Positions 25,196-37,174 of a DNA stretch of 41,996 nucleotides are shown piece by piece. Positions within the stretch are counted from its first letter, which is position 1; every line of letters starts with the position of its first letter. The DNA comes from a virus. Its lineage: Duplodnaviria > Heunggongvirae > Uroviricota > Caudoviricetes. Position numbers and translations under genes: made by a program. The stretch lies in IMG/VR virus record IMGVR_UViG_2681813224_000020. One strand, written 5' to 3'. Under the pieces are notes generated by a model. It was not told the origin of the DNA and ran no database searches. It saw nothing but the letters and a program-made list of their open reading frames with translations.

Positions 25196-25630
25196 TCATA
25201 CCAGCGTAGCGCAGTTTTTGCGTAGCGCACTAATACTTTTTTCATCCCTTTGAATTTCGACCTCAGGATCCATCTGAAGGCTCACACCCAGCATGCAGAG
25301 ACACCCCTCAATGAATCCCTCAGCTACCTGCAACTGCTGGCGGATAAATCCTTCAGAACAGCGACGCCGCCGCCCTATCTCACGTTTGCTTAACCCGTAG
25401 ACGTAGTACAGCATAATGACGTCCAGTTCCTCAGGCTTACGGACCTGCTGCAGTCGACAGACGCAAGCATCGATAATCAGGCCATCGTCGTCACAGCAAC
25501 TCAGCCTGCCAGGCGAGCTGCTGACTACCAGCCCTTTAAATCCCGCCGCTATTGGAGCCCAGCTCACTGTGGTGTTGCTATTGGCAGCCCAGCCACCCCA
25601 GCGCTCTAAAACCTGTTGAATATTACGCAT
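25196..25630 (-). CDS. Late-gene antiterminator Q (QuuD-like family)
   Basis: 144 aa; N-terminal MRNIQQVLERWGGWAAN... matches the start I remember for E. coli prophage QuuD-type antiterminators; CCDDD and Cys-rich motifs; immediately upstream of the late-promoter/terminator/lysis region. Confidence 0.75.
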   Translation of the reverse strand: MRNIQQVLERWGGWAANSNTTVSWAPIAAGFKGLVVSSSPGRLSCCDDDGLIIDACVCRLQQVRKPEELDVIMLYYVYGLSKREIGRRRRCSEGFIRQQLQVAEGFIEGCLCMLGVSLQMDPEVEIQRDEKSISALRKNCATLV

Positions 25631-28107: not shown

Positions 28108-28320
28108 TTAAGCCTTTTTATCGTTTTGTGAGCCATACAACAGCCAATTAGGGTCGCAATCCAATGCTATAGACATTTCAAGAAGATAACGTGGCCGAGC
28201 AATAACACCACTTTCAATTCTGTTTATTGCCTGCTGGCTCACTCCTGTGAGCTCAGCCAACGTAACTTGCGTCATTTTGAGTTCTTTACGTCGTTCTTTT
28301 ACTCGGGTCGCTAAGGTCAT
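28108..28320 (-). CDS. Cro-like HTH (XRE-family) regulator
   Basis: Start MTLATRVKERRKELKMTQVTLAELTGVSQQAINRIESG preceded by GAGGTGA; divergent from the CI-like gene. The ORF track extends to 28338 via a TTG. Confidence 0.6.
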   Translation of the reverse strand: MTLATRVKERRKELKMTQVTLAELTGVSQQAINRIESGVIARPRYLLEMSIALDCDPNWLLYGSQNDKKA

Positions 28321-28440
28321 TGCTTTCACCTCATACAATTTTAGTGGTATTTAGCAACAACAAATGAGGTTTGTCAAATACAACAAAAATTGTTTTTAAT
28401 GTGGGGATACACATTAATACAACCCAGAAGGACTAATCCC
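28321..28440. promoter_or_regulatory. Divergent immunity-switch region (OR-like) with operator dyads and a candidate pR-like promoter
   Basis: Dyads ATACAATTTTAGTGGTAT (28333..28350) and ATACAACAAAAATTGTTT (28378..28395), third ATACAA at 28417; minus strand has TTGACA-N18-TAAATA upstream of the cro-like start. Confidence 0.45.
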
Positions 28441-29064
28441 ATGTCTCTCGCAGCCCGTTTTAAAGCACGTCGTTTGGAATTAGGAATGACTCAAGTGGAA
28501 GTAGCGAATTCTGCAGGGGTTAGCCAACAATCCATAGAATCCATCGAAAGCGGACGAACCAGAAAGCCACGCAATCTTCTGGATCTGGCTAAGGCCTTGA
28601 AATGTAGCCCAGACTGGCTACTGAACGGTAAAAATATTATGCCTCTCGCGGAGATAAGTACCAGACGCATACCTATATTAAGTTACGTTCAGGCAGGAGA
28701 GCTTACAGAAGCAAGAGACATAACAGATCTGACAGGGGAATTTGAATATATTTTGGCAGACTCTGACATTCCAGAAACATGCTTCGCATTACGTATCGAT
28801 GGCGACAGCATGCAACCAGAGTTTAAAGAAGGAGACATTGTTATCATCGATCCTGATCTATGTCCTGCACCAGGGGAGTTTGTTGTCGCCAAAAACGACG
28901 GTCACGAAGCTACATTTAAAAAATACCGTCCATTAGGAATCGGCATCGACGACTTTGAATTAATCCCCCTAAATCCTGATTACCCTATTTTTCGTAGTGC
29001 AGATATGAACTTACAGATCATAGGTGTAATGATCGAACACCGTATTTACCGCCGTAAACGTTAG
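28441..29064 (+). CDS. CI-like repressor (N-terminal XRE HTH, C-terminal S24 LexA-type autopeptidase)
   Basis: Start MSLAARFKARRLELGMTQVEVANSAGVSQQSIESIESG preceded by AAGGA; C-terminal FALRIDGDSMQPEF...VVAKNDGHEATFKKY carries the Ser/Lys dyad context. The ORF track start 28390 adds 17 codons. Confidence 0.8.
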   Translation: MSLAARFKARRLELGMTQVEVANSAGVSQQSIESIESGRTRKPRNLLDLAKALKCSPDWLLNGKNIMPLAEISTRRIPILSYVQAGELTEARDITDLTGEFEYILADSDIPETCFALRIDGDSMQPEFKEGDIVIIDPDLCPAPGEFVVAKNDGHEATFKKYRPLGIGIDDFELIPLNPDYPIFRSADMNLQIIGVMIEHRIYRRKR

Positions 29065-29175
29065 TATTCCCACCGTAAATATCGGGAGGCGTAACAGCCT
29101 CCCTTACCCCATTTGTAAAGTCTTACAAATTAAATTCACTTAAATATCAATAAAGTAGTATTCACACCTCACAAA

Positions 29176-29218
29176 ATACCACATTTGTGGTTTACACAAT
29201 ACAACTCAAATTGTATCT
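29176..29218 (+). promoter_or_regulatory. OL-like operator pair with a candidate rightward early promoter (pL-like)
   Basis: Perfect 18-bp dyad ATACAACTCAAATTGTAT (29199..29216) and ATACCACATTTGTGGTTT (29176..29193), same consensus as the CI/Cro intergenic dyads; TTTACA (29191..29196) - N17 - TATCTT overlapping them. Confidence 0.4.
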
Positions 29219-29386
29219 TTAGCCACAAGTCGAACGGCGCGACTCTAAACCATGCGTCGGGACCGTGGCGGGACAGGATGTCGGCAATACGGGTCAGTAA
29301 GTTCCCTTTGGGGTGCGGCGAAGCACTGTCTACTGATACAAGTCGAAGCCGCCGAACCACCAAAGTGAACTGAATGAGGAAACGGC

Positions 29387-29581
29387 GTGAAAACGTATAA
29401 ACCGCTCAAAGGTGAATGCCCTGCTTGCCAAACACAGCTTCTGACACCAAAGCCAAAACGATACCAAATCAACGAATGTTATGAGCACTGCCCTGGATGT
29501 GGTGCTTTCCTGCATACCATTGCAACGCACTGGCGTGTCCGCTTCAACCTTGTGGTACCACGTACGCACAATACCAACTGA
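29387..29581 (+). CDS. Small zinc-ribbon protein (Cys4), first gene of the rightward early operon
   Basis: 64 aa; CPACQ-N19-CPGCG; GTG start with RBS GAGGAAA; followed by a terminator. Confidence 0.45.
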   Translation: MKTYKPLKGECPACQTQLLTPKPKRYQINECYEHCPGCGAFLHTIATHWRVRFNLVVPRTHNTN

Positions 29582-29610
29582 ATCATCCATGTAATTGCTG
29601 TGTGTAGTCT

Positions 29611-29638
29611 TTGCCCGCCTCACGTGACGGGCTTTTTT
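29611..29638 (+). terminator. Rho-independent terminator after the zinc-ribbon gene
   Basis: GCCCGCCTCACGTGACGGGC followed by TTTTTT. Confidence 0.55.
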
Positions 29639-29664
29639 ATGTCTGAAAGCGCACTCGCAACAGC

Positions 29665-29847
29665 GTGCTCCCCGATATGAAAAAAGGAATACAACCGATG
29701 AAACCTGAACACATCCATCGACTGACGGGGCGCGATGTTCTCCGTTATCGCCGTAAAAACTTCGATTTGATGACCGGTCTGGCCGTTGCCACTGCGCTCG
29801 GTCTGATCATCACTTTCATTCTCCTTGTAGCGAGGACCACAGTATGA
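29665..29847 (+). CDS. Small tail-anchored membrane protein (hypothetical)
   Basis: 60-aa ORF with a C-terminal hydrophobic segment GLAVATALGLIITFILLVA; stop overlaps the start of the next gene. Confidence 0.35.
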   Translation: MLPDMKKGIQPMKPEHIHRLTGRDVLRYRRKNFDLMTGLAVATALGLIITFILLVARTTV

Positions 29848-30746
29848 GTTTAGAAACCAGTCTAGAACTTAATAATCAACTTCTGGCACAACATAATGCG
29901 CTGCTTGAACGTCTTATCCGCACAATGGCATCAGGCATTGTTATGCATCCTGACACGATTTCACGAGTGCAGGAATGTCGGGATACAGCAACTGAAGCTG
30001 AAAACATGTCAGCGGCAATGACACTGGATGATCTGGAGTTCAGCGACGTTATCGCACTGGCTGGTTTCTACCCGGTAGCCACCCCTATCACAGAAGACAT
30101 GCTGCAACGTGCTGTTGCCTACCGTGATGCTGAAGGCGATAAACGAGTAGTTCAGATTGATGCTCTCGACAGCGCATTACAGGGCGTCAAACGAGCCAGG
30201 GCGCTGCTTAAACCTGCTCTCCTGGACCTGTCCCGTAACATTCTTAAGTTCTGGGACGACCTGCCAACCATCGGCGAGCGACGTGCTTTTGCCGAGCAGC
30301 TACTTGATGCACCTGCAGATGGGCGTGATGAAGTTAAGCCGAAAAAGGCCAGTAACAAAGATGGAGAACGCACGGGGCCGTTTTACGTCAAAAATGTATC
30401 CGGCACAGCAGCCAGTGAACTCCACACCTTACGCAAGTTGAACGAGATGCTTAAAAAAGGCCATATCGAGATCAACCGTGTTGAGTACCTTCAGCTGCAG
30501 GAAGAATTTGCACGCAGAGACGCAGCAAATTCCAGCCAGAATAATGACGCCAAAGATGACCATACAATTGATTTCGCGGCACTACGCAAACAAGCTGAAG
30601 GGTTGATCCTCCAGTTAGCAAAAGGGGGTTACCGGGCAGAAGCTATTGCAATTCTGGAAAAACAGGGAGCCAGGAAACTTGGTGAAGTAACGGATGAAAA
30701 TCTCGCTGAAGTAATCACCCTGGCTGAAAAAGCACTGGAGGGTTAA
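29844..30746 (+). CDS. Hypothetical early protein
   Basis: 300-aa ORF, co-directional and tightly coupled to the DUF2800-like gene; no motif recognised. Confidence 0.5.
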
Positions 30747-32704: not shown

Positions 32705-34207
32705 GTGTCAACTTTGAGAATCGGTATGGAAATCCAAGAGTTTGTAAGTCACTATAAAAACCACCCTGTTCTATTCATTGGAACAGGATTTAGCCTACGG
32801 TATCTAGAAAACTCATTTAGCTGGGATGGTCTTCTTTTGAGTGTCGCAATGGAACTAACCGGTAATGCTGAGTTTTACTACGATTTGAAAGCTGAAAGCC
32901 TAGAAGGTGACGACTATCGATATGATATCTTAGCTACAAAACTTGAAGATATTTTTAATAAAAAGCTGGCAGAAGACCGTAACGGTAAGTTCAAAGACAT
33001 CAATGATGTTTTCTATGAGCACATGAAAAAAGGAAAAAAACTAAGTCGATTCAAAATTTATTTAACTTCAATACTTAAAGACCTAAAGATAAAAGAGTCA
33101 ATGATGGAGGAAATAAACAGCTTAATAAAAACAAGAAAAAACATAGGCTCCATCATTACAACAAACTACGACCAACTCGTAGAGAATATCTTCGAATTTA
33201 ACCCACTGATTGGTAACAACATTCTTTTAAGTAACCCATACGGTTCAGTTTACAAAATACATGGCTGTGTTAGTGATCCTAACAACATAATTATCACAGG
33301 TGAAGACTACGCAAACTTCGACAATAAATATGAGTTAATTCGCGCTCAATTACTCTCAATATTCATACACAACCCTATCATATTTATAGGGTATAGTATT
33401 AGCGATAAAAACATTAAGTACTTATTAAAAACCATATTCTCATACGTTGACTTAAATACCGAACTTGCAAAAAGGATAAAAGATAATTTCCTTTTGGTTG
33501 AATACGAAAAAGACAGCATGTCAACTGAAATTACGGAGCATGACATAGATATAGAAGGCATGTCTATCATAAGAATAAACAAAATAAAAACAAACAATTA
33601 CAAAGCTGTATATGATGCCATCTCTGGACTAGTTTTGCCAGTATCCGCAATGGACATAAGAAAGGTTCAAAAAGTTTGGAGTACCATCAAAAGTGGTGGT
33701 GAGATAAAGGTTAAAATTACAGAAAATTTAGATGAACTTCGCAATGATGAAATGGTCATTGCTGTTGGTTCAGAAAGAACCGTACAATATGTTTATCAAA
33801 CAAAATCTGAAATGATACAGAACTATTTTAAAATAGTTGACGAAGCAAACTCTCAGCTTATCGCATTACTGAATAAGCAAACCATAGCTAATAGCGAACA
33901 CTTTCCAATATACGCTTTTAGTTCTATCTGCCCTGAACTAGAAAATACCGAGACATACAGAAAACGGCAGCTAGATAAAATCATTGGTAACCTTTCTCGA
34001 ATTAAAACATGTAAGAGTGAGGCTGTGTCTATTGATGAAATACTAAAAGAAACGAAAGAGTATAAAGTTGCTAACACGATTATGTATTGCGTACTAAACG
34101 ATACTATTTCATTGAAACAACTACGAGATTATTTAACAAAACCAGGGCATAAAATTGATACCCAATACAGGCGACTTTTATGCTTGTATGATTATTTATC
34201 ATATTAA
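32705..34207 (+). CDS. SIR2-like (SIR2_2 / DUF4020-type) protein with a C-terminal domain of unknown function; candidate NADase-type anti-phage defence gene, AT-rich insertion
   Basis: 500 aa; motifs in order PVLFIGTGFS, SWDGLL, IITTNYDQLVE, YKIHGCVSDPNNIIITGEDY, NPIIFIGYSISDKN match the hallmark pattern of the defence-associated SIR2 family; codon usage is strongly AT-rich against its flanks; GTG start with RBS AGAGG; own terminator. Confidence 0.7.
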   Translation: MSTLRIGMEIQEFVSHYKNHPVLFIGTGFSLRYLENSFSWDGLLLSVAMELTGNAEFYYDLKAESLEGDDYRYDILATKLEDIFNKKLAEDRNGKFKDINDVFYEHMKKGKKLSRFKIYLTSILKDLKIKESMMEEINSLIKTRKNIGSIITTNYDQLVENIFEFNPLIGNNILLSNPYGSVYKIHGCVSDPNNIIITGEDYANFDNKYELIRAQLLSIFIHNPIIFIGYSISDKNIKYLLKTIFSYVDLNTELAKRIKDNFLLVEYEKDSMSTEITEHDIDIEGMSIIRINKIKTNNYKAVYDAISGLVLPVSAMDIRKVQKVWSTIKSGGEIKVKITENLDELRNDEMVIAVGSERTVQYVYQTKSEMIQNYFKIVDEANSQLIALLNKQTIANSEHFPIYAFSSICPELENTETYRKRQLDKIIGNLSRIKTCKSEAVSIDEILKETKEYKVANTIMYCVLNDTISLKQLRDYLTKPGHKIDTQYRRLLCLYDYLSY

Positions 34208-36412: not shown

Positions 36413-37174
36413 ATGATGCAGGATCTCAATGAAATGGCTCTCAAATACCCACACCCTGTCGAAACTTTTCGTCAATTTTTAGTCGAATCCGGATTTGATG
36501 TTACCGGAGAAGAAAACAAAGCCGGTCATGATTGTTATCGTTTAAGTAATGGTGCCATCATAACGCTTTACCACACCGGAACGATTTTGATTCAAGGCTC
36601 ACAAGCGGCAAAACCAGAGGTTGAAGCCATTATTAATGAACACTTGGGTAACGCGCCAGCTCAACGAGTTCAGCCAGCCCCGGTTCAAGAGCCAGCCAAA
36701 AAGATTTTCATCGTTCACGGTCACGACCATGCAGCAAAAGAGCAGCTTGAGCTCATTCTTCATAAGCTTGGGTTACCTGATCATTTTATTTTGCAGAATA
36801 CAGGTGGTACTGGACTTACGATAATTGAAGAACTGGAGCGTGAAATTGGTCAAGGGCAGACAGCGACTCGTTTCGGCATTGTTCTTCTCACTCCCGATGA
36901 TGTGGGATACTCCAAAAGAGACGGTCAAGAAGCAGCCCTGCCCAGGGCTCGTCAAAATGTAGTTCTAGAAATGGGGATGTTGTTATCATCACTCGGCCGC
37001 AGTAACGTGGTCATCTTGCAGAAGCAACACCTTGAACAGCCTTCTGATGCTGCGGGTATTCTTTATCTCAACTTTAATGATCATGTTCGAGAAACTGTAC
37101 CTCGCTTAATCCAGCGCCTTAAACAGGCCGGTTTCACATTTAATGAAGCTCAAATAGCGAACGCTTCATCTTAA
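36413..37174 (+). CDS. Two-domain protein: small N-terminal domain plus C-terminal Rossmann-like nucleotide-binding domain resembling TIR-like / SLOG families; candidate accessory gene
   Basis: 253 aa; C-terminal domain motifs KKIFIVHGHDHAAKEQ, NTGGTGLTIIEELERE, FGIVLLTPDD; Pro/Gln-rich linker APAQRVQPAPVQEPA; RBS AGGAAA; own terminator. Family assignment is tentative. Confidence 0.4.
   Translation: MMQDLNEMALKYPHPVETFRQFLVESGFDVTGEENKAGHDCYRLSNGAIITLYHTGTILIQGSQAAKPEVEAIINEHLGNAPAQRVQPAPVQEPAKKIFIVHGHDHAAKEQLELILHKLGLPDHFILQNTGGTGLTIIEELEREIGQGQTATRFGIVLLTPDDVGYSKRDGQEAALPRARQNVVLEMGMLLSSLGRSNVVILQKQHLEQPSDAAGILYLNFNDHVRETVPRLIQRLKQAGFTFNEAQIANASS

Follow-up and report, generated by a model that had tools for sequence, protein, structure and literature searches.

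A put-type leader RNA and an RprA-like terminator module in the early-left operon of an Escherichia coli prophage

The virus record IMGVR_UViG_2681813224_000020 (the window; the whole stretch of 41,996 nucleotides (nt) that was analysed) is an E. coli prophage located next to yfhL, and the region described here was 100% identical to strain ECONIH2. This region is the head of the early-left operon, in which a CI-type repressor gene is followed in the same direction, as in lambda and HK022, by an operator-covered promoter, a leader, a small zinc-ribbon gene, a terminator and the early operon (Table 1). The arrangement is that of a lambdoid pL operon. The initial annotation had placed the promoter, a leader of ~165 nt, a 64 amino acid (aa) open reading frame (ORF) with four cysteines and the terminator correctly, and had compared the whole with lambda pL-N-tL1; the lambdoid order stands, but the closest analogue of the locus is HK022 pL-putL-nun. 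Two RNA elements are the main subject of this account: a putL-type sequence with which the leader begins, and a 47 nt module, including the terminator, that resembles the processed 3' end of the host small RNA (sRNA) RprA.

Table 1. Features of the early-left region and related genes in the window
Feature	Coordinates	Strand	Basis	Details
Q antiterminator gene	25196-25630		Pfam	serves late genes on the other side
Cro-like helix-turn-helix gene	28108-28338	-		
CI-type repressor gene	28441-29064	+	Pfam	HTH_3 and Peptidase_S24; RefSeq name LexA family protein
GC hairpin behind repressor gene	29084-29103	+	fold, -16.1 kcal/mol, z = -3.6	GGGAGGC-GUAACA-GCCUCCC, without U run
Early-left (pL-type) promoter with operators	29178-29219	+	consensus scan	-35 TTTACA 29191-29196, 17 nt spacer, -10 TATCTT 29214-29219
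putL-type antiterminator RNA (probable)	29226-29297	+	BLAST, covariance model	72 nt, pseudoknotted stem I and stem II
Second leader hairpin	29300-29370	+	minimum free energy -29.9 kcal/mol, z = -2.2	long stem, variable tip, ends just before Shine-Dalgarno
Zinc-ribbon ORF	29387-29581	+	ORF list	64 aa, GTG start, motifs CPAC and CPGC (C11, C14, C35, C38)
Semi-conserved CUGAAUCAUCCAUGU stretch	29578-29592	+		between cargo slot and RprA-like block, overlapping ORF stop
RprAproc-like module	29594-29640	+	Rfam, BLAST	47 nt; block of A plus UUGCUGUGUGUAGUCUUUGCCC at 29594-29616, then terminator hairpin and U6
Terminator	29613-29638	+	fold	stem GCCCG 29613-29617 with CGGGC 29628-29632, U6 29633-29638
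Start of early operon	29698-30746	+	PHROGs 11981 and 6784	49 aa membrane peptide, 300 aa protein

Between the end of the -10 hexamer and the GTG at 29387 the leader measures 167 nt; counted from the transcription start inferred at 29226 it is ~161 nt long. As had been proposed, it contains no convincing ORF: the plus strand offers only a 62 aa ORF with a TTG start upstream of the transcription start and a 38 aa ORF whose ATG lies inside the conserved put sequence, and neither frame is kept in the Enterobacter relative, which has indels there (89 nt versus 100 nt). BLAST against annotated phages showed positions 29215-29299 to be 79% identical to HK022, HK75 and O276, at features annotated as putL antiterminator RNA; put has no Rfam family, the element was found by this route only, and a search of Rfam at gathering thresholds returned nothing in the window. 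The put match begins 7 nt past the -10 hexamer, a distance that HK022 and O276 share. A covariance model scored the element at 90.5 bits (E = 3e-16) and, with filters off, gave this as its sole match in the window, with no second copy of the putR type. Lambda-type antitermination leaders are recognized by a boxA (CGCTCTTA or GCTCTTTAACAA) together with a boxB hairpin and an arginine-rich N protein encoded downstream; no boxA within two mismatches was present from 29220 to 29640 and no boxB in the window leader.

A degenerate pattern recovered put-like elements from 112 viral contigs, amounting to 52 distinct sequences, and 20 distinct putL-type sequences were compared with the published structure based on cryo-electron microscopy (cryo-EM), which was derived independently of them. 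With stem I tested as positions 3-7 with 15-19 and 10-14 with 30-34, plus stem II, 96.4% of cells were paired, against 27-49% with slid partners; six pairs were changed on both sides, and the covariation score was reached by none of 500 shuffles. The window element itself carries three compensated pairs by comparison with HK022 (A5U/U17A, G38C/C70G and C41U/G66A), and the residues essential in HK022 put are all kept (A9 at 29234, U28 at 29253, G35 at 29260, G45 at 29270 and A64 at 29287), as are the essential paired segment A3-G7 (29228-29232) and the putL-specific -10-like sequence AACCAT (29248-29253; AACCAU at +23 to +28 of the RNA). The suggestion in the initial annotation that the leader could hold a structured RNA was thus borne out, the leader being neither unconserved nor unstructured. 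In an Enterobacter bugandensis prophage the put sequence is 100% identical, while the flanking leader and genes are only 77-88% identical. Such elements are sparse among cellular genomes, with put-like sequences in eight contigs from seven genomes (Pantoea, Kluyvera, Siccibacter, two Escherichia and two Gilliamella) when one genome was scanned for each of 185,579 species; the exact subtype of the window was found in none of these species-representative genomes.

Taken together, these data make it very probable that the leader segment in question is a put-type RNA antiterminator. HK022 has two such polymerase-utilisation RNAs, putL and putR, known from the work of King, Weisberg and co-workers. 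The put RNA of HK022 binds the zinc-binding domain of the beta-prime subunit and requires no phage protein; it travels with the polymerase that made it, which then pauses less and resists intrinsic as well as Rho-dependent termination (Hwang et al., 2022; PMC9378689). By analogy, the window put would be active in antitermination, and read-through would need no phage protein because the leader is put RNA. Between put and the ribosome-binding site lies the second leader hairpin, with a 19-pair consensus stem and a tip that bears a 12 nt deletion or an 11 nt insertion in relatives. Support for this hairpin is modest because only a single pair covaries; a processing site or translational control are possible roles.

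The promoter hexamers match consensus at 9 of 12 positions, although promoter-quality matches were not above chance by themselves (5 found versus 4.5 expected). The promoter call is instead supported by alignment with HK022, as the hexamers align column by column with those annotated for HK022 pL. Two operator-like palindromes, ACCACATTTGTGGT at 29178-29191 and TACAA-N6-TTGTA at 29200-29215, overlap the promoter. The same promoter and operators occur in relatives L272 and L279 ahead of a different leader. This alternative, present instead of put, starts with a perfect rrn-type boxA (CGCTCTTTAACAA); the ~175 nt of RNA behind it are highly conserved (L272:1180-1400, L279, L003:1265-1470, L273, L243 and L278), contain three GGTAAGC repeats and end in the hairpin AAACGCCCCGATGATGGGGCG, and Rfam gave no match. 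Such a leader may represent another type of antitermination, with host factors alone, and the exchange of put for a boxA leader behind the same promoter fits a need for processive antitermination at this position.

The terminator that follows the zinc-ribbon ORF was described initially as strong. It is real, since a GC hairpin with a U run is the predicted fold of 51 of 51 distinct versions (-7.3 to -16.4 kcal/mol), with covariation among G:C, A:U and C:G at stem pairs 5-7; its strength was overstated, with a moderate minimum free energy of -9.8 kcal/mol (z = -1.7 versus shuffles) from a 5 base pair GC stem and one inner pair. The stem is interrupted and a simple terminator scanner did not list it. 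The hairpin loop, CCUCACGUGA, is specific to the phage.

In a permissive Rfam scan the RprA family (RF00034) matched positions 29533-29642 with 50.5 bits (E = 3.3e-5), which falls short of the gathering score of 70 and comes almost entirely from the 3' 50 nt or so. BLAST matched 29593-29638 to annotated rprA in ~5300 E. coli genomes. All 24 bases of AATTGCTGTGTGTAGTCTTTGCCC (29593-29616) are identical to E. coli K-12 rprA, the identity beginning one base before the module; behind these shared bases the window and rprA have different GC hairpins, each with a U tail. RprAproc, the last 47 nt of RprA, starts with AUUGCUG, coexists with full-length RprA and is active alone; a narP(+1+50)-lacZ fusion responds to it (PMC9262595). 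The module aligns with these last 47 nt, the similarity beginning at the RprA processing site, and the conserved RprAproc part AUUGCUGUGUGUAGUCUUUGCC followed by a GC hairpin and U tail is present in the window. The shared stretch is also the best-conserved part of the Rfam RprA family consensus.

Conservation of the block in phages is far above that of its surroundings. Between the window and the Enterobacter prophage the block is 100% identical, by comparison with 81% for the ORF, 65% just upstream of the block and 88% for the hairpin region. We fetched 54 relatives via the neighbouring 300 aa protein, a sample that is unbiased with respect to the leader-terminator region; all 49 for which upstream DNA was available carry the block with no more than one mismatch, and it is kept even where the 300 aa protein is only 63-76% identical. 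An exact match to the block was found in at least 120 viral contigs, none of which has a genuine rprA 5' part. In each of 37 different upstream contexts an A precedes the 22-mer, and conservation ends one base further up, at the RprAproc 5' end. Beyond this point the upstream sequence differs completely between phages, and because of this the block cannot have a shared promoter of its own. The fixed single-stranded 23-mer, set against a hairpin that varies, argues that the block is not merely a terminator.

Immediately upstream, the semi-conserved stretch listed in Table 1 is similar to the RprA region CCCCUGAGUG where relatives have CCCCUGAAUCAUCC; of 186 copies, 60 contain CTGAATCATCC and 90 contain CTGAAT. 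Phages vB_EcoM-606R2, 689R2 and 611R5 match the window at 97.8% only from 29585 onward, and judging by these alignments a mosaic joint lies right at the start of the RprA-like module.

The block also occurs in quite different settings and, as in the window, lies inside operons in other phages. It is found at the end of STnc100-like leaders (L059:8201-8401, 48.9 bits; Cronobacter phage phiES15), upstream of kil and gam in Cronobacter phage phiES15 (L285:1195-1250), behind a CI-type repressor gene and a leader of ~400 nt in the largest IMG/VR group (L026:5805-5850), and directly after the thymidylate synthase gene in the virulent N4-like Erwinia phage Ea9-2 (L284:598-650). A distant relative (L282:415-480) has kept the scaffold CUGA.AUCAUCC.UGUAAUU ... 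CUUUG with its hairpin and U6, whereas the middle 12 nt differ. This scaffold reads CUGACAUCAUCCCUGUAAUU ... CUUUGGCCCG before the hairpin and U6, with CCUUGCCAAGCC as the middle of the core. To judge from the alignment, the change looks like the replacement of an sRNA seed. A further element, CCACC(N)CGCCUGAUGUGG(U/C)UAAAAGCAGGC, was observed near the start of several non-put leaders, including STnc100-like ones (L233:1270-1330, L231, L026:5478-5510 and L285:975-1010); in L231 and L233 it is only ~40-60 nt upstream of the RprA-like block.

The zinc-ribbon ORF has a Shine-Dalgarno sequence, GAGGA (29376-29380), 6 nt ahead of its GTG, and is left unannotated by RefSeq. Searches of Pfam, PHROGs, NCBIfam, PADLOC and PDB sequences brought up nothing beyond generic zinc-ribbon matches below threshold. 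Within the family the four CPxC cysteines are invariant down to ~50% identity, a fifth cysteine being variable, and homologues of similar length have been called as genes in other phages, one of ~50% identity occupying the same slot in the distant relative L282 and another lying in a Mu-like early gene cluster. By comparison with the Enterobacter copy (81% identity) there are 13 synonymous-only and 15 non-synonymous codons in frame, against 2/25 and 7/19 in the other two frames; the codon pattern supports translation of the ORF and also suggests fast change. The family is very small: among 5.8 billion proteins clustered at 90% identity it makes up three clusters, and again three among 1.84 billion clustered at 50%. 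An AlphaFold2 model built from a three-sequence alignment (predicted local distance difference test score 64) was implausibly all-helical, and was set aside as unreliable.

The ORF occupies a slot that is exchangeable. E. coli JNE23-001 (L004) agrees with the window in promoter, put, second hairpin, ribosome-binding site and terminator but has an unrelated 64 aa ORF between them. Among the 54 relatives the slot is filled by alleles of the zinc-ribbon gene or by one of at least three other ORFs, the product of one being 176 aa long, or has no ORF; Pfam gave no match to these other ORFs. Where there is no ORF of 25 aa or more the terminator is still kept, all such cases having non-put leaders; the zinc-ribbon gene in its turn is also found behind non-put leaders, including the boxA type. 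In relative L248 the zinc-ribbon gene is seemingly frame-shifted, the longest slot ORF being in another frame of the same DNA, which would fit a dispensable gene. On sequence criteria the ORF looks like a real coding gene, an orphan cargo in an exchangeable slot as nun is in HK022, and a role in early host takeover or exclusion is no more than a guess from its position.

We consider it likely that the locus is an RNA antitermination unit of the HK022 kind and that its first attenuator has a second product, a small RNA that mimics RprA. Once the operators are free of the CI-type repressor, polymerase would start at about 29226, and the first 72 nt of the transcript (29226-29297) would fold as put and bind the beta-prime zinc-binding domain, as in HK022. 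Polymerase modified in this way would pass the attenuator at 29613-29638 and any Rho-dependent sites, and go on to transcribe the replication and defence genes; unmodified complexes would stop at the attenuator and release an RNA with a 3' end that looks like RprAproc. This RNA would present a single-stranded 23-mer, a GC hairpin and a U tail, the usual arrangement for Hfq binding, and trimming by RNase E at the site equivalent to that of RprA could then produce a 47 nt RNA, which we infer would act as a phage mimic of RprA on host targets. The zinc-ribbon ORF would be accessory cargo outside the antitermination mechanism. The suggestion of a phage-borne mimic of a host sRNA comes from conservation far above that of surrounding genes, a start at the processing site and recurrence in unrelated phages. 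Whether the module functions as a phage-made RprA-mimic sRNA we regard as evenly balanced, its production, Hfq binding and action in trans being deduced from these features.

Several observations weigh against this interpretation. On the antitermination side, the base at the position of the HK022 U68 bulge, the unpaired wedge base of lower stem II, is G in the window (A or U in other natural variants), where deletion of U68 in HK022 put abolishes antitermination (PMC9378689), upper stem II is one base pair shorter than in HK022, and there is only one put copy, the rightward side having none. The hairpin is modest, and in a third type of leader the block lies ~70-100 nt behind a divergent promoter region without put or boxA; the terminator may be leaky and antitermination perhaps non-essential. 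With regard to the small RNA, the promoter should be repressed in lysogens, so that any such RNA would be made chiefly after induction or infection. Most copies of the tail were collected by exact match to the core, so that their invariance arises partly by construction, and the unbiased sample obtained via the 300 aa protein answers this for one phage family only. No target is known for RprAproc, and pairing of the window tail with the rpoS leader (z = -1.2) was not better than that of shuffled sequences, by comparison with z = -3.4 for genuine RprA and z = -1.7 for CCCCUGA-type relatives. Activation of rpoS by the window tail is accordingly unsupported. As for targets in the phage itself, the best duplex of the 19 nt core (-21.8 kcal/mol) did not exceed the mean best for shuffled cores (-22.4 kcal/mol).

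Two alternatives concern the zinc-ribbon ORF. The initial annotation had proposed that its product could be an antiterminator or an Ogr/Delta-like regulator, and the ORF does occupy the N/nun position, first after the early promoter and before the first terminator, with coding-type conservation and a small, zinc-binding product like Ogr/Delta. We now hold both versions to be very improbable. The leader is put RNA, which acts without a protein (PMC9378689); unrelated ORFs can fill the slot without loss of leader or terminator, and the terminator is retained even where the slot has no ORF, which shows that this protein is not the antiterminator and largely refutes an N-like role. There is no boxA or boxB, and the N-terminus of the protein has no arginine-rich motif. 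Ogr_Delta (PF04606) did not list the window ORF even at E up to 10, and the homologue P0005 scored 7 bits versus a cut-off of 26.3. The cysteine spacing of Ogr/Delta proteins is C-X2-C-X22-C-X4-C; that of the window ORF is C-X2-C-X20-C-X2-C. The late genes, moreover, have their own Q antiterminator, and a protein family of three clusters in 1.84 billion proteins is tiny where the operon design is widespread. The opposite proposition, that the 64 aa ORF is not a gene and that 29226 to 29640 is one non-coding leader RNA, would account for the lack of RefSeq/PGAP annotation, the GTG start, the failure to pass any curated family threshold, the apparent frameshift in L248 and the excess of non-synonymous over synonymous changes between close alleles (8 versus 4). 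It is nevertheless improbable in view of the well-placed Shine-Dalgarno sequence, the invariance of the CPxC cysteines, the enrichment of synonymous-only codons in the ORF frame over the other two frames and the similar-length homologues called as genes, that of the Mu-like cluster included.

The other two concern the RprA-like block. It could be only a terminator, or a junction that favours recombination, related by descent to the rprA 3' end through capture in either direction and having no role in trans. The position of the block exactly at a mosaic joint, where the three vB_EcoM phages begin to match and upstream of which the slot is variable, speaks for this, as do the absence of a target in the phage, the non-significant pairing with rpoS and a promoter expected to be off in lysogens. 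However, a terminator needs only a hairpin and a U run, and it is these that vary while the 23-mer stays fixed; the fixed block starts at the RprA processing site and corresponds to the best-conserved part of the RprA family consensus; the argument from module junctions fails for the thymidylate synthase setting in the Erwinia phage and for the STnc100-like settings; and the distant relative that keeps the scaffold with its middle replaced is what would be expected from a change of seed. On this evidence we think a purely structural block rather doubtful, while giving it serious weight. The 3' ends of small RNA genes are common integration sites for phages, which then bear a copy of the end in question, and the RprA-like sequence could on that ground be an attachment-site core for integration into the 3' end of rprA. 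As the prophage lies next to yfhL with its integrase at the far right end, ~10 kb from the element, and as the element sits inside the early operon between promoter and genes, and inside operons in other phages too, this reading was rejected, its chance of being correct being negligible.

The GC hairpin behind the repressor gene may, from its predicted fold, mark where the immunity transcript stops; were it an inefficient terminator, transcription begun at the repressor promoter could continue, even in a lysogen, through the early promoter to put and the RprA-like block. Behind the terminator, the 300 aa protein is followed by genes for a DUF2800 nuclease, DUF2815, SIR2, DNA polymerase A and TIR proteins (RefSeq, Pfam). 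The SIR2-family gene (32705-34207, plus strand) matches the PADLOC candidate system PDC-S25 (E = 4e-158), with a weaker ThsA-like match, and the TIR-domain gene (36413-37174, plus strand) matches PDC-S35 (E = 2e-109); the two flank the DNA polymerase A gene. They are probably defence genes borne by the prophage and would lie downstream in the put-modified transcription unit.

The put element is the textbook example of RNA polymerase being reprogrammed by an RNA alone. To the few natural versions known the window adds a distinct subtype, and its natural variation (G at the wedge position and a shorter upper stem II) is directly comparable with the structure, for which ten natural put versions were aligned (Hwang et al., 2022; PMC9378689). 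That the same promoter drives put or a boxA-type leader in relatives amounts to a natural swap experiment on one antitermination problem. The RprA-like block is the more unexpected part of the locus, the most interesting and the least explained; nothing relevant on RprA-like RNAs in phages was found in the searchable literature (open-access papers and preprints), where an earlier description is possible. Tentatively, and with somewhat more doubt than confidence, we propose that it is a portable 47 nt module that copies RprAproc, is carried by many enterobacterial phages both temperate and virulent, either as the first attenuator of an early operon or downstream of other genes, and floods the cell with a mimic on infection or induction. 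If so, the mimic might assume whatever control RprAproc exerts, for example the as yet unexplained narP repression, which is indirect, or act as a competitor for Hfq or for a partner RNA; in the window prophage its output would be set by the efficiency with which put modifies polymerase; and horizontal transfer would have given the phage module a common origin with the 3' half of rprA that is conserved in the host.

By comparison with known systems, the module shares with RprA the 24 identical bases followed by a GC hairpin and U tail, and a start at the RprAproc 5' end. Unlike RprA it lacks the 5' stem-loop, has a degenerate central seed (CCAACUGA versus CCCCUGAG in the host) and a different terminator stem sequence, and is not a separate gene with an Rcs-type (RcsB-dependent) promoter, being instead the 3' end of a phage mRNA or leader.

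StxS is a small RNA produced by early termination at the Q-controlled tR' of Shiga-toxin phages, and as such a precedent for a regulatory RNA that arises at an antitermination-controlled phage terminator (Sy et al., 2020; PMC7547250). The window has the corresponding order, an intrinsic terminator downstream of put, and by analogy the two would share a promoter-proximal terminator under antitermination that gives a short RNA with a hairpin and U tail, with Hfq, RNase E trimming and host mRNAs as its partners. StxS also mimics host sRNAs, including RprA. It is made from late pR' under Q, whereas the window has an early-left promoter and put RNA; there is no sequence similarity; and StxS mimics the seed that pairs with rpoS, while the window element copies the RprAproc part. 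Identity with StxS was rejected, the StxS region of 933W giving no match to the core at six or fewer mismatches. STnc100/PasD (RF02076) is related in that some STnc100-like leaders of other phages end in the RprA-like block and terminator, but the window has no STnc100 match and the 3' end of the Rfam STnc100 consensus differs. RprA is nowhere named in the preprint on Pas and STnc100 RNAs (Zhu, Shabalina and Storz, 2026), and identity with PasA-D was likewise rejected on this account and on the location of PasB among structural genes.

The likeness to lambda N/nut and HK022 Nun consists of a small gene placed first after pL and the same operon logic. By contrast with lambda N/nut, the window leader has neither boxA nor boxB, and the window protein has no arginine-rich motif, no family match and is dispensable for the design. 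With HK022 putL the window element has in common its position directly behind the early-left promoter, its length of ~72 nt, a two-stem pseudoknotted fold and the same AACCAU at +23 to +28, and the order of repressor, promoter, put, small gene and terminator is also shared. It differs in lower stem II (GACCGU/ACGGGUC), the G bulge and the shortened upper stem II; the phage has one put copy and no putR, the gene behind put is the zinc-ribbon ORF and not nun, and the phage itself is not an HK022-like lambdoid, having a VapE primase, DUF2800, DUF2815, a DNA polymerase A module and myovirus-type structural genes. The window put thus extends a known type of RNA antiterminator by a distinct natural subtype, carried by a phage of a different kind from HK022.

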